Positions 21,633-25,291 are shown, numbered from the stretch's first letter. The stretch is DNA of 64,000 nt from Candidatus Nealsonbacteria bacterium (GCA_030628945.1 DAOVPY010000001.1:51302-115301), one strand, 5' to 3'. Translations and numbers: made by a program. Notes: generated from the sequence alone by a model not told the origin.

Positions 21633-21674
21633 ATCCATTACAAATTAATCCGATCGGATTACTTTGTAATGGAT
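21633..21674. repeat. 42-bp perfect palindrome ATCCATTACAAATTAATCCGATCGGATTA(C)TTTGTAATGGAT (family copy 1)
   Basis: Direct read. The outer 12-bp arms ATCCATTACAAA/TTTGTAATGGAT are shared with the copies at 24485 and 25248. Confidence 0.85.
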
Positions 21675-21703
21675 AAAACAGAATTGAAAAAATATCCAAA
21701 AAC

Positions 21704-21742
21704 AAATCCCGCCCCCTCCTTTAGAGGAGGGGGCGGGATTTC
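21704..21742. terminator. Bidirectional rho-independent terminator (nrdG / groEL convergent)
   Basis: AAATCCCGCCCCCTCC-TTTA-GAGGAGGGGGCGGGATTT: a 16-bp GC-rich perfect stem with A/T tracts on both sides. Confidence 0.8.
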
Positions 21743-21767
21743 AAATACTCGGTTTTTTCCACGGCTC

Positions 21768-23414
21768 TTACATTCCCATTCCGCCCATTCCTGGCATTCC
21801 GTCTGGCATTGAGGGGCAAACTCCTTCTTTCTTTTCTTCCGGTTTCTCGGCCACGACGCATTCAGTCGTTAGCAGCATTGTCGCGGCGGAAACCGCGTTT
21901 TCCAGAGCTGAACGTACTACTTTTGTCGGGTCAACAATTCCAGCGGCCATTAAATCTTCATAAACATCTATGCTGGCGTTATAGCCGAAATTACCTTCTT
22001 TTTTAAGAACTTCGGCAGTTACCACCGACCCTTCCTTGCCCGCGTTTTCCGCAATCTGCCTGATTGGTTCCTCCAGAGCCCTTTTGAGGATGTTTAAACC
22101 AATTTCTTCTTCTTTGTCCTTGCTTGCTTGCAGCTGGTTTAGAGATTTGAGAGTTCGGAGAAGAGCTACTCCGCCGCCCGGCACAATTCCTTGTTCCACT
22201 GCGGCTTTGGTGGCTGCCAAAGCGTCCTCGGTTTTATGCTGACGGGATTTCTGTTCAACTTCAGTGGCGGCTCCTACTTTAATTACCGCAACGCCGCCGC
22301 TTAATTTCGCTAACCGTTCCTGAAGTTTTTCTTTGTCAAATTCAGAATCACTGACCTTAAGTTCACTTTTAATTTGGCTGATTCTGGCGTCAATATCCTC
22401 TTTTTTGCCCTTGCCTTCAATAATAGTTGTGTTTTCTTTGGTTGAGACAACTTTTCTTGCCTGACCAAGCATTTTGAGCTCAATTTTGTCTAATTTTAAT
22501 CCTAATTCTTCGGAAATAAGCTGGCCTCCGGTAACCTCTGCAATATCTTGGAGCATTTCTTTTCTTCGGTCTCCAAAACCCGGCGCTTTTACGGCAAGCG
22601 CGTTAAATATCCCGCGGAGTTTATTAACTACAAGGGTGGCTAAGGCGTCACCCTCAATTTCGTCGGCAATGAGCACTAATTCTTTTTTGCCTGCTTGCGC
22701 CACTTTTTCCAAAACCGGCACAATATCCTGGAGAGAAGAAATCTTTTTATCTGTAATCAGAATATAGGGGTTTTCAAATTCGGCTTTCATCTGTTCCGCG
22801 TTAGTAATCATATAAGGCGAAACATAGCCCCGGTCAAATTGGAGCCCTTTCACAATTTCTTTTTGAAGTCCGAATGTTTTGGATTCTTCCACCGTAATGA
22901 CGCCGTCTTTGCCAACTTCTTCCATTACTTCGGCTATTAAATTCCCGATTTCCGAATTTTCAGCTGAAATTGTGGCGACCTGAGCAATGTCGTTCTTGCC
23001 GCTTACTGGTTTTGACATTTCTTTGAGCGTTTTTATCACTAATTTAGTGCCTTTTTCAATTCCTTTTTTAATGGCTAATGGATTGGCTCCGGCCGTAACG
23101 TTTTTTAATCCTTCCCTGATTATGGCTTGGGCGAGCAGGGTAGCGGTGGTGGTTCCGTCTCCGGCAACATCATTGGTTTTTTCAGCCACTTCTTTGACAA
23201 TTTCAGCCCCCAAATTTTCCACCTTGTCTTCCAAATCAATTTCTTTGGCAATAGTCACGCCGTCATTAGTAATTGTCGGGGCGCCGAAACCTTTATCCAG
23301 CACTACATTTCTGCCTTTGGGTCCAAGAGTGACTTTTACCGCGTCTGCAAGTTTATCCACTCCATTTTTTAATTTTTTGCGCGCTTGTTCGCTGTAATGA
23401 ATTTGTTTTGCCAT
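21768..23414 (-). CDS. groL: Chaperonin GroEL (Cpn60)
   Basis: Full-length match to GroEL: [11 protein letters not shown]...[14 protein letters not shown]...GGGVALL... with a C-terminal GGM repeat (MPGMGGMGM). Confidence 0.97.
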
Positions 23415-23420
23415 ATTTTT

Positions 23421-23711
23421 TTATTCTAAAATCGCCAGGATATCTTCTTCCTTGGCAATCAGATATTCTTTGTCCTGAATTTTTATCTCGTTTGGTCCGT
23501 ACTTGGTGAAAAGAACCTTGTCTCCTTGTTTTACGTCAACAGGGATTATTTTGCCTTCCTCTGTTTTTCTGCCCGGACCCACGGCAATAACTTTGCCTTG
23601 TTCCGGTCTTTCCTTTTCCGCTGTTTCCGGCAAAAGAATGCCGGTTTTTGTTTTTTCTTCTTCTTTAATCGCTTCAATGAGAATATGGTCTGACAATGGT
23701 TTTATTTTCAT
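23421..23711 (-). CDS. groS: Co-chaperonin GroES (Cpn10)
   Basis: MKIKPLSDHILIE...GKVIAVGPG... in a 96-aa protein. Confidence 0.95.
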   Translation of the reverse strand: MKIKPLSDHILIEAIKEEEKTKTGILLPETAEKERPEQGKVIAVGPGRKTEEGKIIPVDVKQGDKVLFTKYGPNEIKIQDKEYLIAKEEDILAILE

Positions 23712-23736
23712 AATGCTTATTTTCTTTTTTTCAAAA

Positions 23737-23807
23737 ATCGACCTTTCCCCTGTTAAATAATTTTCCTTTTAGGAAAATTCCTGCTCGCCTTAAGCGAGCA
23801 TGGTTTA
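23737..23807. repeat. Small palindromic element with CCCTGTTAAA / TTTAACAGGGTGAA termini and two internal hairpins (family copy 2)
   Basis: CCCCTGTTAAATaa-ttttccttttaggaaaatt-cctgctcgccttaagcgagcatg-GTTTAACAGGGTGAA, upstream of groES. Confidence 0.75.
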
Positions 23808-23881
23808 ACAGGGTGAATTTTTGTTTCTATCTCTTAGTATTAAAAATAAAAACAAATTTGTCAATCCCGTCCCCCAAAAAC

Positions 23882-23912
23882 TTGACAAAGTTTCAAAAAT
23901 TTGTTTAAATAT
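23882..23912 (+). promoter_or_regulatory. Putative sigma-70 promoter for the lipoprotein gene
   Basis: TTGACA - 17 nt - TTAAAT/TATATT; AGGAGGTG SD 13 nt before the ATG at 23981. Confidence 0.4.
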
Positions 23913-23980
23913 ATTATCACAACAAAGGAAGGATTGTGAATAAAGCATATTAAAAAAATGAGGAGGTGAAAAGAAAAGAA

Positions 23981-24343
23981 ATGAAAAAAATTGCGGCAAT
24001 ATTAATGGTGGCGCTTGCAGCAATTGTGATAAGCATGGGGTGTGGATGTATAGAGTCGAATGAACCGGAAATTACAAGAAAGACCATCTATCCTGGAACA
24101 GTACTCTCAATAGAGCCGTATGGGCTGTCAGCGACGACAGAGGTGCGATATATGGGAATTGAAAATAATGCAATAATGTTTGCAGAAATACACACTGCCA
24201 AGAGAATACGCAACCATTTTGAGTATAGCTTTAATTACACCCATGGAATGACCTGCGTGGTTGGCGACCACGGATATATGCTATCAAATATAACTGTTGA
24301 AGATGTTAATAAAAGTATTATATCCTACGACCATTGGGACTAA
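23981..24343 (+). CDS. Hypothetical lipoprotein
   Basis: Signal peptide plus lipobox (AAIVISMGC). The ORF-track GTG start at 23966 is replaced by the ATG at 23981 behind a strong SD. Confidence 0.4.
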   Translation: MKKIAAILMVALAAIVISMGCGCIESNEPEITRKTIYPGTVLSIEPYGLSATTEVRYMGIENNAIMFAEIHTAKRIRNHFEYSFNYTHGMTCVVGDHGYMLSNITVEDVNKSIISYDHWD

Positions 24344-24408
24344 TATAGAAATAAAGGCGATGAGAACTAAAATTCATCGTCTTTTTATTTTTTTCCGTTA
24401 TGCAATTA

Positions 24409-24456
24409 AGGCGTTTTGCTTATGCAGTTTTGTCTGTGCAAACAAAACGCCTTTTA
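24409..24456 (+). terminator. Putative rho-independent terminator
   Basis: GGCGTTTTG...CAAAACGCC stem followed by TTTTAAATT. Confidence 0.45.
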
Positions 24457-24484
24457 AATTAAAATAAGAATCAACATTGTTTTT

Positions 24485-24528
24485 AATCCATTACAAAATC
24501 GGACGATCGTCCGATTTTGTAATGGATT
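24485..24528. repeat. 44-bp perfect palindrome AATCCATTACAAAATCGGACGATCGTCCGATTTTGTAATGGATT (family copy 2)
   Basis: Direct read. Same outer arms as 21633 and 25248; the centre differs but stays palindromic (compensatory changes). Confidence 0.85.
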
Positions 24529-24588
24529 GTATTTTATGTTATTCTCTATATTAGAGTTAGAGAGTTAGAAATGTAATGTTTTGTTAAT

Positions 24589-25209
24589 ATGAAAAAAACA
24601 AAAAATTCAAAATACCTTTTTCAAAAAAGGAAAGCAAGTTTTACTAAAAAACTTTTTGAAAAAGGTTTAACCGCGACAAGTTATATATTGTTTGCGATTA
24701 AAGATTTTAGCGATAGTTTTCCTCAAGATTTGTTAAACGAACTTCCTAATTGTTATCCCGGATTTAAGTTTTTAAAAGATATGTTTGGCTGTAATTCTAA
24801 AAAAGAATTCAAGAAAGATACTATTAGAGTAAATATTTTCCGACTTAAAAAACAAGGTCTTATAACCGAAGCTGAAAATAAAAAATTTTGTCTCACCGCT
24901 AAAGGAGAGGAAATGGTCGCTTATATTAAGGACAGATATTCTATTTTAGAAAAACCCTGGGACAAAAAAATCAGGTTGGTTGTTTTTGATATTCCAGAGA
25001 GGGAAAAATATTTTAGGAGATGGCTTCGCGGAGAATTAGGATTATTATTGTTTAAACAACTTCAAAAAAGCGTTTATATCGGAAAATATCCAATTCCCGA
25101 TGATCTTTATCAAGATTTAATTAAAAACAATCTTTTTCAAAATGTGCATATTTTTACCATTAACGAGGCGGATAAACAGGAAGAATTGATGAAGTTATTA
25201 GAGAAGTAG
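24589..25209 (+). CDS. Putative transcriptional regulator: N-terminal winged HTH plus C-terminal Cas2-like/PaaX-C-like domain
   Basis: wHTH segment TIRVNIFRLKKQGLITEAENKKFCLTAKGEEMVAYI. The C-terminal segment IRLVVFDIPEREKYFRRWLRGELGLLLFKQLQKSVYIG aligns by pattern with the Cas2 N-terminus ([30 protein letters not shown]). Confidence 0.4.
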   Translation: MKKTKNSKYLFQKRKASFTKKLFEKGLTATSYILFAIKDFSDSFPQDLLNELPNCYPGFKFLKDMFGCNSKKEFKKDTIRVNIFRLKKQGLITEAENKKFCLTAKGEEMVAYIKDRYSILEKPWDKKIRLVVFDIPEREKYFRRWLRGELGLLLFKQLQKSVYIGKYPIPDDLYQDLIKNNLFQNVHIFTINEADKQEELMKLLEK

Positions 25210-25247
25210 ATCAGAGGGATAGGTTAGAGAAATAGATTAGAATTACT

Positions 25248-25291
25248 CATCCATTACAAACTAATCCGATCGGATTAGTTTGTAATGGATG
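25248..25291. repeat. 44-bp perfect palindrome CATCCATTACAAACTAATCCGATCGGATTAGTTTGTAATGGATG (family copy 3)
   Basis: Direct read. Confidence 0.85.

Follow-up and report, generated by a model that had tools for sequence, protein, structure and literature searches.

The PaaX protein of Escherichia coli combines a winged helix-turn-helix (wHTH) with a dimerisation domain and, at the C terminus, an effector domain; its binding sequence is TGATTC-N27-GAATCA, and it represses its own promoter, Px, through steric hindrance (PMC9493321). For the BlaI/MecI/CopY repressors the operator core is TACAnnTGTA (PMC7253601). Here we describe three long palindromes in 64,000 nucleotides of DNA from a Candidatus Nealsonbacteria bacterium (GCA_030628945.1 DAOVPY010000001.1:51302-115301; this whole stretch is called the window below), two of which bracket the gene for a PaaX-like protein of 206 amino acids (aa). 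Comparative evidence indicates that the palindromes are probably the cognate operators of this winged-helix/Cas2-like protein, because related Patescibacteria keep the site-gene-site arrangement and the sequence of the site changes along with the protein.

Repressors that act by DNA looping provide a second point of comparison: lambda CI, whose OR and OL operators flank the cI gene, LacI with O1, O2 and O3, and GalR. The uncultivated Patescibacteria (candidate phyla radiation, CPR) encode a very small number of transcription factors, and knowledge of their regulation is minimal. Our literature search returned nothing on PaaX in connection with Patescibacteria, nor on PaaX in connection with Cas2. 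Short wHTH-Cas2-like proteins of the kind described here are a large uncharacterised family.

Results

Three palindromes around a PaaX-like gene

The pattern ATCCATTACAAA-N18-TTTGTAATGGAT occurs in the window at 21633-21674, 24486-24527 and 25249-25290 and in none of 100 dinucleotide-preserving shuffles, which agrees with the identical 12-bp outer half-sites described in an initial annotation of this DNA. Beyond these sites, no copy of the 12-nt arm was found in the 64 kb at zero mismatches. The same annotation called all three palindromes perfect, and for two of them this is correct: site 2 (24485..24528) and site 3 (25248..25291) are perfect over 44 bp. Site 1 (21633..21674) is a 42-bp near-palindrome, ATCCATT-ACAAA-TTAATC-CGATCG-GATTAC-TTTGT-AATGGAT, with 20 of 21 positions symmetric; its sole mismatch, T21645 versus C21662, falls in the inner arm (TTAATC...GATTAC). 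CGATCG forms the centre of all three, and the window holds no other copy of this hexamer.

The PaaX-like gene (24589..25209, + strand) lies between sites 2 and 3. The dyad of site 2, the proposed autoregulatory operator, is 83 bp 5' of its ATG, and that of site 3 is 60 bp 3' of its stop and 763 bp from the site 2 dyad. Site 3 is also 21 bp 5' of a TTGACA hexamer (25312-25317), in a promoter-like region that precedes the next gene (25425). Site 1 stands apart from the gene, in the spacer where nrdG (+, ending at 21577) and groEL (-, ending at 21768) converge; the groEL terminator hairpin (21704-21741; 11 GC pairs, then GTTTTTGG) is 30 bp away. In the syntenic relative L025 (L numbers are our handles for loci, P numbers for proteins) an orthologue of site 1 occupies the matching place (5802-5843), and the right flank is conserved.

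Copies 1 and 2 additionally have 21 of 22 bases of left flank in common (TTTTAAATnAAAATAAGAATC; 21612-21632 and 24463-24484), with a 16-nt insert (AACATTGTTTTTAATC) between this flank and the palindrome in copy 2. The left flank of copy 1 reads as a promoter-like TTGATA-17-AAGAAT (21606-21634, +), from which the start would fall inside the palindrome, directed toward the 3' end of groEL.

Association of site and gene across relatives

Exact arms (TCCATTACAAA-N14-26-TTTGTAATGGA) were sought in 185,579 GTDB species genomes and in JGI metagenomes, where 9 and 12 loci, respectively, proved to be unrelated single hairpins that lack a CGATCG centre. The exact arms are therefore private to the lineage of the window, and we instead compared the DNA around homologues of the protein. 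The comparison set comprised 12 gene contexts, each with a homologue of the PaaX_M protein (200 aa), on Patescibacteria/Parcubacteria metagenome contigs (~250 kb of DNA), with 45-89% pairwise protein identity, two paralog pairs and varied neighbourhoods.

A palindrome of the same architecture adjoins the gene in all 12 contexts and is present on both sides in 10. Upstream, a site was found in 11 of the 12, with its dyad 32-110 bp before the ATG, or 233 bp before it in L041, where three sites form an array; the upstream region of L040 is cut off by the contig end. Downstream sites likewise occur in 11 contexts, with the dyad 16-72 bp past the stop. In the nine contexts with a single pair, the dyad-to-dyad distance is 678-763 bp, and multi-copy arrays are present at both ends in L041 and L040. 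Altogether, 30 of 33 sites lie less than 700 bp from a PaaX-like gene, the three exceptions being site 1 of the window, its L025 orthologue and a site in L036 that is 7.7 kb away.

The genes nearby vary and include dnaE/RNase HII, an S12 operon, acetyl-CoA synthetase, murA/mreB, mraZ and a gas-vesicle cluster. As neighbourhoods differ between lineages, the sites belong to the gene and not to its neighbours. The window is syntenic with L025, where each of the three sites has its counterpart, and in L034 and L036 the gene is found in a common murA-mreB-holB-frr neighbourhood despite rearrangements. In L034, L040 and L042 the downstream site occupies a convergent spacer and is therefore not the operator of a downstream promoter. 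A small open reading frame (ORF) 5' of the PaaX-like gene was considered as a conserved partner and rejected, as the upstream ORFs are only weakly similar to one another (E 2e-4 to 0.04); those in the window (120 aa), L025 and L026 resemble small lipoproteins.

Several features of individual loci were recorded in passing. Three tandem ~46-bp units (GAAAATTATGAGGAAAAATGGAAAATTTTTTCCAAATAATTCT) separate the operator array from the ATG in both PaaX-like paralogs of the metagenome-assembled genome (MAG) GCA_034717255.1 (L041 9190-9328, L040 1-118). In L034 (10001-10048) the upstream palindrome, whose dyad is at 10017, is overlapped by the PaaX-like gene (222 aa) at its called start; translation probably begins ~16 codons further 3', which would give the usual ~206 aa. 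L038 contains another PaaX_M paralog, more distantly related (217 aa, 16443-17096), with AAAAAAGGTGA-N-TCACCTTTTTGTTTT hairpins on both sides; on its 3' side there is also a perfect 42-bp palindrome of a different kind, with CCATGG at its centre (GATAACGTATAATTTAAACCATGGTTTAAATTATACGTTATC). The elements around this paralog are at 16320-16350, 17124-17165 and 17200-17240.

Anatomy of the site

Placed in register on the dyad, the family yields the consensus RTNACAAA-N6-CGATCG-N6-TTTGTNAY. Counting outward from the dyad, positions 1-3 (CGA/TCG) and 10-17 (RTNACAAA) are conserved across lineages and 88-100% symmetric, while positions 4-9 and 18-21 vary within genomes and are 51-80% symmetric. Within the window, the inner arms of copies 2 and 3 (ATCGGA/TCCGAT versus CTAATC/GATTAG) differ at five of six positions, and every change is mirrored in the opposite arm. 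The compensatory change that the initial annotation attributed to the centres is thus seen between these two copies, but perfect symmetry does not extend to the family: L041 carries five copies with the same asymmetric inner segment (CTTGAA...TCGGAG), and the inner N6 is asymmetric in L026, L029, L040 and L042 as well. The variable and frequently asymmetric inner N6 of other lineages speaks against a hairpin that has to form. Judged by this pattern of conservation, the anatomy bears the mark of protein binding at three contact blocks, rather than that of an obligatory hairpin.

At the orthologous site 1 of the window and L025, the inner N6 has been replaced symmetrically between nearly identical flanks, and each version resembles the other copies of its own genome. 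The perfect 42-44-bp symmetry of the window is a lineage-specific extreme that may have arisen by template-switch correction of quasi-palindromes or by gene conversion between copies.

Half-sites change with the protein

Half-site sequences vary with lineage. The window and L025 carry ATTACAAA, L026 carries GTCACAAC, L029 GCAACAAA, L034 RTGACAAA, L038 GTTTCAAA, L042 GTGACATT and L043 GTAGCTAA; ATAACAAA is found in L032, L040 and L041, and L036 has an ACTACAG variant with a CTATAG centre. Two proteins, P0056 and P0065, appear to be paralogs of one MAG because they have a locus-tag prefix (HQ539) and sample in common. They are 59% identical and differ in their recognition helices. Before their loci were fetched we predicted that each paralog would be accompanied by its own site variant, and this proved correct: P0056 is accompanied by three GTGACATT-type sites (two upstream, one downstream) and P0065 by a GTAGCTAA-type site on either side, with the CGATCG centre and the spacing retained in both. 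The near-identical paralogs P0026 and P0028 (88% identical) have ATAACAAA in common.

At the level of single residues, Ile rather than Thr at position 4 of the recognition helix coincides with A at half-site position 15 in five of five cases, and the remaining six of six have a base other than A (L036, in which the half-site is shifted by 1 bp, is excluded from this tally). The Ile/A15 pairing has at least two independent origins, and the correlation is no more than suggestive.

Relation to the promoter

A putative promoter of the PaaX-like gene (24517..24545, +) consists of a -35 box TTGTAA (24517-24522), a 17-nt spacer and an extended -10 element TGtTATTCT (24537-24545), with transcription predicted to start near 24552. 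It is read from conservation: L025 and L032 have the block ATTTTATGTTATTCT unchanged, and in all nine contexts inspected a -10-like element, in some cases extended, directly follows the upstream site on its 3' side (TGtTATTCT in the window, L025 and L032; TGtTATAAT in L036; TGcTATAAT in L041). The putative -35 falls inside the right half-site, in the right arm of site 2, so that a bound protein would occlude RNA polymerase.

The 206-aa protein

The protein consists of an N-terminal winged helix followed by a Cas2-like PaaX_M domain. Its match to PF20803 PaaX_M (residues 122-198, E 7.3e-12) scores 45.7 bits against a cut-off of 24, while the Pfam PaaX N-domain is matched weakly (14.5 bits, cut-off 24.8), as is the N-terminal half of the Cas2 profile. 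PaaX_C gave no match at E <= 0.1, and the chain stops at residue 206, directly after the Cas2-like domain. The protein had been annotated as wHTH plus "Cas2-like/PaaX-C-like"; the wHTH is matched weakly and the Cas2-like part, as PaaX_M, above threshold, whereas the PaaX C-terminal domain is absent.

The AlphaFold2 model (pLDDT 77.7) comprises a winged helix and then a ferredoxin-like domain, with the recognition helix at about residues 76-88 (H76-88) and the wing at 92-102 (E92-94 and E100-102). In Foldseek the best solved-structure match was E. coli PaaX 8a39 (E 8e-5 over 202 columns, with sequence identity of ~16%), followed by Rv0674 and then by many Cas2 chains that align to the C-terminal half. 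A PDB sequence search with the single protein returned nothing relevant. The family profile gave marginal matches to the MecI/BlaI, PadR and MarR wHTH across the recognition helix, with MecI as the best solved structure (E 0.001); the aligned helices read KTIRTLITRLYKKGFI in the family and DTIRVNIFRLKKQGLI in MecI.

At E <= 0.001 the family comprises 5,631 cluster representatives (50% identity), and the best 150 are nearly all 123-226 aa long. A Cas2-like block, VVFDIPE...R...QKSV, is invariant or nearly so in 27 sequences, down to 28% identity (residues F133, D134, E137, R143, Q159, S161 and G165). No relatives of the protein were found in 2.9 million viral contigs, and no paa genes in the window or the 12 related loci, where the neighbours are housekeeping genes.

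Surroundings of the locus

Besides housekeeping functions (parA/parB, topA, dprA, ftsA/ftsZ, nrdD/nrdG, groES/groEL), the low-GC window (37.7%) encodes a long glycosylation cluster and an ECF sigma factor; proteins closely homologous to those of the window carry Parcubacteria or Patescibacteria labels. No transposase, RAYT (REP-associated tyrosine transposase), IS200 or integrase domain was detected among the ORFs of the window with 100 aa or more for which a scan was run or precomputed Pfam matches existed, a survey that omitted the last three ORFs (61.9-63.9 kb) and a 1482-aa ORF at 34301-38749. Rfam, at gathering thresholds, yielded one tRNA and nothing else in the window.

GATC is depleted about 8-fold in the window (26 observed, 218 expected), and the CGATCG of the sites is thus kept against the compositional trend. 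The idea that CGATCG is avoided specifically outside the sites was rejected, as GATC and many palindromic hexamers are depleted generally. CACGTG, CCTAGG, CTCGAG, GGATCC, GTCGAC, TCTAGA and TACGTA are all absent; the observation takes in L025-L041 along with the window, and the depletion of GATC and palindromic hexamers suggests strong restriction-avoidance pressure.

On the 3' side of site 3, two paralogous membrane-anchored genes (225 aa and 195 aa; 27% identical) have a common strong promoter-like TTGACA-16/17-TAAGAT (25389-25416 and 26173-26201). A second regulator gene (32070-32633, +), just 5' of the ECF sigma gene, encodes 187 aa with a C-terminal DeoR-like HTH and is flanked by inverted repeats that contain GGACAT/ATGTCC (31998-32036 and 32636-32694). 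The upstream repeat is AATAGTTGGACATCGTATGTCCAACTATT and the downstream repeat has perfect 22-nt arms, AGGTAGGACATAGATAGGACAT-N15-ATGTCCTATCTATGTCCTACCT. GGACAT-N0-30-ATGTCC has four matches, all around this gene, with 0.02 expected; in L025 the bracket is half conserved, with the downstream repeat only. A 37-nt imperfect inverted repeat 5' of ftsA (16295-16371) holds TTGGACATTGGACAT, which includes the same GGACAT motif. Upstream of groES is an imperfect 26-nt inverted repeat (23748-23813; CCCTGTTAAA...TTTAACAGGG) with no match to the consensus of CIRCE (controlling inverted repeat of chaperone expression), and a CIRCE-like palindrome, GAGCACTC-N8-GAGTGCTC, is present in L029 at 17194-17221.

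Discussion

The operator interpretation offered in the initial annotation is strengthened by the presence of a site beside the gene in every context compared, by half-sites that change with the protein at a fixed spacing and centre, and by the overlap of the upstream copy with the putative core promoter. The comparison establishes the sites, the architecture they have throughout the family, their exclusive association with this gene family, half-sites that co-vary with the protein, and the PaaX-like fold; from these we infer binding itself, the dimer geometry, the promoter, the sign of regulation and looping, as follows. The protein would dimerise through its Cas2-like domain, as PaaX does, and place two winged helices on the 8-bp half-sites (ATTACAAA / TTTGTAAT in the window), whose centres are 27 bp apart. 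The invariant CGATCG may serve as a third contact or as a shape element over the dimer axis. A dimer at site 2 would cover the -35 of its own promoter and shut it off, that is, negative autoregulation. Site 3 would be a second operator of the gene, most likely strengthening repression by looping the ~0.76-kb gene or else blocking read-through; a dyad spacing of 678-763 bp would allow looping. Site 1 would be a third, more distant target.

Several observations weigh against operators of this kind. The convergent spacers that hold the downstream site in L034, L040 and L042 are one; similarly, site 1 and its L025 orthologue lie between convergent genes, with no promoter there needing control, and the third L036 site is 7.7 kb from the gene. 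A consensus promoter scan did not call the putative promoter of the PaaX-like gene. The co-variation is based on 12 pairs that are not independent, and the copy count refers to 64 kb of a source scaffold of ~316 kb (ENA ERZ23498683), so that the genome-wide number could differ. Finally, the inner N6 is perfectly symmetric in the window, L025, L038 and L043, beyond what half-site recognition needs, which hints at an extra structural constraint or a mutational bias.

That last point bears on whether the palindromes are mainly nucleic-acid structures, with the protein association secondary. They might act as RNA hairpins, either as U-tract-poor terminators or as 3'-end stabilisers of the nrdG, 120-aa lipoprotein and PaaX-like genes, or as DNA cruciforms. 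We consider this unlikely, although the three copies are predicted to form RNA hairpins of very high stability (-21.8, -30.9 and -31.4 kcal/mol, with z-scores from -7.8 to -9.5). The five mirrored changes between copies 2 and 3 and the symmetric N6 replacement at the orthologous site 1 would suit a hairpin, but the site of a symmetric dimer equally predicts symmetric covariation, and in L041 (five copies), L026, L029, L040 and L042 the inner stem is asymmetric and the asymmetry is kept across copies. All three window copies stand 3' of + strand genes, and the L036 sites have A- and T-tracts like bidirectional terminators. The absence of a T-tract had been cited against simple terminators; there is indeed no classical T run after the window copies, but the tails (GTATTTTATG and TTGGTTGTTA) are T-rich without an uninterrupted run, and a simple terminator scan flags copies 2 and 3. 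With 7 of 20 stem pairs G-C, the window palindromes lack the GC-rich stem and immediate U run of an intrinsic terminator. Site 2 is not needed for the end of the upstream gene, since two terminator-like hairpins of that lipoprotein gene (24353-24384 and 24411-24452) already stand 5' of it. Moreover, a hairpin has no need of the primary sequence (CGATCG, ACAAA) that is conserved across lineages, and a terminator family is not expected to be limited to the flanks of one gene family. The PaaX-like gene might alternatively be only a target of a different, unlinked factor, such as a global regulator or a reader of CGATCG or GATC, or the sites may in part be promoter elements. The right half-site TTTGT doubles as a -35-like TTG, and with the strongly avoided GATC inside CGATCG a methylation- or restriction-related reader is conceivable. 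This explanation is distinctly unlikely because the half-sites diverge in step with the recognition helix of the adjacent protein, including in the apparent one-MAG paralogs; the downstream sites in convergent spacers, in addition, keep their sequence without a promoter.

Both flanking sites are kept while the neighbourhood changes, and arrays occur at both ends in L041 and L040, as might be expected if site-gene-site were a self-contained selfish or mobile cassette, in which the Cas2-like domain is an active nuclease or strand-transfer factor on the flanking palindromes and the winged helix serves for targeting only. The Cas2-typical FD..E...R...QKSV block is invariant or nearly so, and a weak Cas2 profile match and Cas2 structure matches point the same way. 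Against this, we saw neither target-site duplications nor empty sites, and in PaaX the corresponding domain serves dimerisation (PMC9493321). The synteny of the window and L025 with three sites, the common neighbourhood of L034 and L036, the lack of viral relatives and the failure to find a recombinase or transposase nearby in the window ORFs examined speak for vertical descent, and we regard such a cassette as very improbable. Only slightly less doubtful is a broader form, in which the Cas2-like domain does more than dimerise, contacting or processing the CGATCG at the dyad, and site-gene-site is an autonomous, self-recognising unit, either a regulatory unit that insulates itself or a module derived from Cas2 and serving selfish spread, addiction or mobility; were it true, the natural helix/half-site pairs would amount to a readable specificity code. 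Least probable by far is a dispersed repeat of the REP (repetitive extragenic palindromic)/BIME (bacterial interspersed mosaic element) or MITE (miniature inverted-repeat transposable element) type that has no connection with the gene and owes its spread to a RAYT or transposase. The size and palindromic form are REP-like, and the 21/22-base left flank of copies 1 and 2 suggests duplication beyond the palindrome. However, the scattered dozens of copies implied by the REP-like alternative of the initial annotation did not materialise: there are three in 64 kb, all within 3.7 kb, 30 of the 33 family members keep close to the gene, exact arms in the GTDB and JGI sets are unrelated hairpins, and the window ORFs examined gave no RAYT, IS200 or transposase domain. 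Integron attC sites, whose outer-conserved, centre-variable form is superficially similar, were rejected, as the sites here are symmetric without extrahelical bases, the flanked units include the opposite-strand groESL, and the window yielded no tyrosine recombinase. Analogies to protelomerase and parS sites were dropped because no matching enzyme or feature was present.

If the palindromes are operators of the adjacent protein, the pair is recognisable by sequence, as RTNACAAA-N6-CGATCG-N6-TTTGTNAY flanking a 200-aa PaaX_M gene, and would give an entry point to regulation in the CPR and a site model with which regulons could be reconstructed from CPR genomes. The natural set of helix/half-site pairs that have diverged, which includes orthogonal paralogs apparently in one genome, would lend itself to the study and engineering of winged-helix specificity. 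The locus also indicates what form an effector-domain-less relative of PaaX takes, in a family of thousands of 50%-identity clusters.

Comparison with known systems

Among known elements, REP/BIME sequences and intrinsic terminators resemble the sites in being intergenic, 35-45 bp long and able to form hairpins. The sites described here differ in that they are not dispersed, are not GC-rich with a U-tract, are conserved in blocks across lineages and are confined to the flanks of one gene family.

The half-site core, (T)ACA / TGT(A), recalls the BlaI/MecI/CopY operators, as does the similarity of the recognition helix to MecI. In those repressors, however, TACA and TGTA are 2 bp apart and dimerisation is by a helical C-terminal domain, whereas here the distance is 22 bp and the domain is Cas2-like. 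The similarity is marginal, and we treat it as a lead only.

Looping repressors likewise have the same operator repeated several hundred bp apart, with one copy at the promoter and another beyond or inside the gene, and the lambda repressor gene also lies between operator clusters. In the present case looping is what we infer, and the predicted operators keep a stereotyped spacing from the two ends of one small gene, its start and its stop. We know of no oligomerisation beyond the dimer in the PaaX-like family.

PaaX itself is the closest comparison. The two proteins have a wHTH and a Cas2-like middle domain in common, with 8a39 as the best structural match and PF20803 above its cut-off. A long, wide-spaced inverted repeat is the operator of PaaX (39 bp) and the predicted operator here (34-42 bp), and the regulator's own promoter is a target of PaaX and a putative target here. 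The geometry is TGATTC-N27-GAATCA in PaaX versus 8-bp half-sites that are 18 bp apart, with lineage-specific outer bases ~28 bp apart. The present protein has 206 aa and no C-terminal effector (phenylacetyl-CoA) domain, whereas 8a39 has 305-316 residues; no paa genes are nearby, and the host is of the Patescibacteria type with a reduced genome. Without an effector domain or a paa link, the protein would work like PaaX but is not a bona fide PaaX. The sites, too, differ from those of PaaX in having a third conserved block, CGATCG, at the dyad and a downstream copy past the stop (11 of 12 contexts). This proposed operator-gene-operator bracket, with its stereotyped layout, is an architecture that we do not know from PaaX-type regulators, and it raises the question of looping or read-through control in minimal genomes. 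With about two-thirds confidence in the operator interpretation, the locus represents a PaaX-type regulator that lacks the effector domain and has tripartite operators on either side of its own gene.

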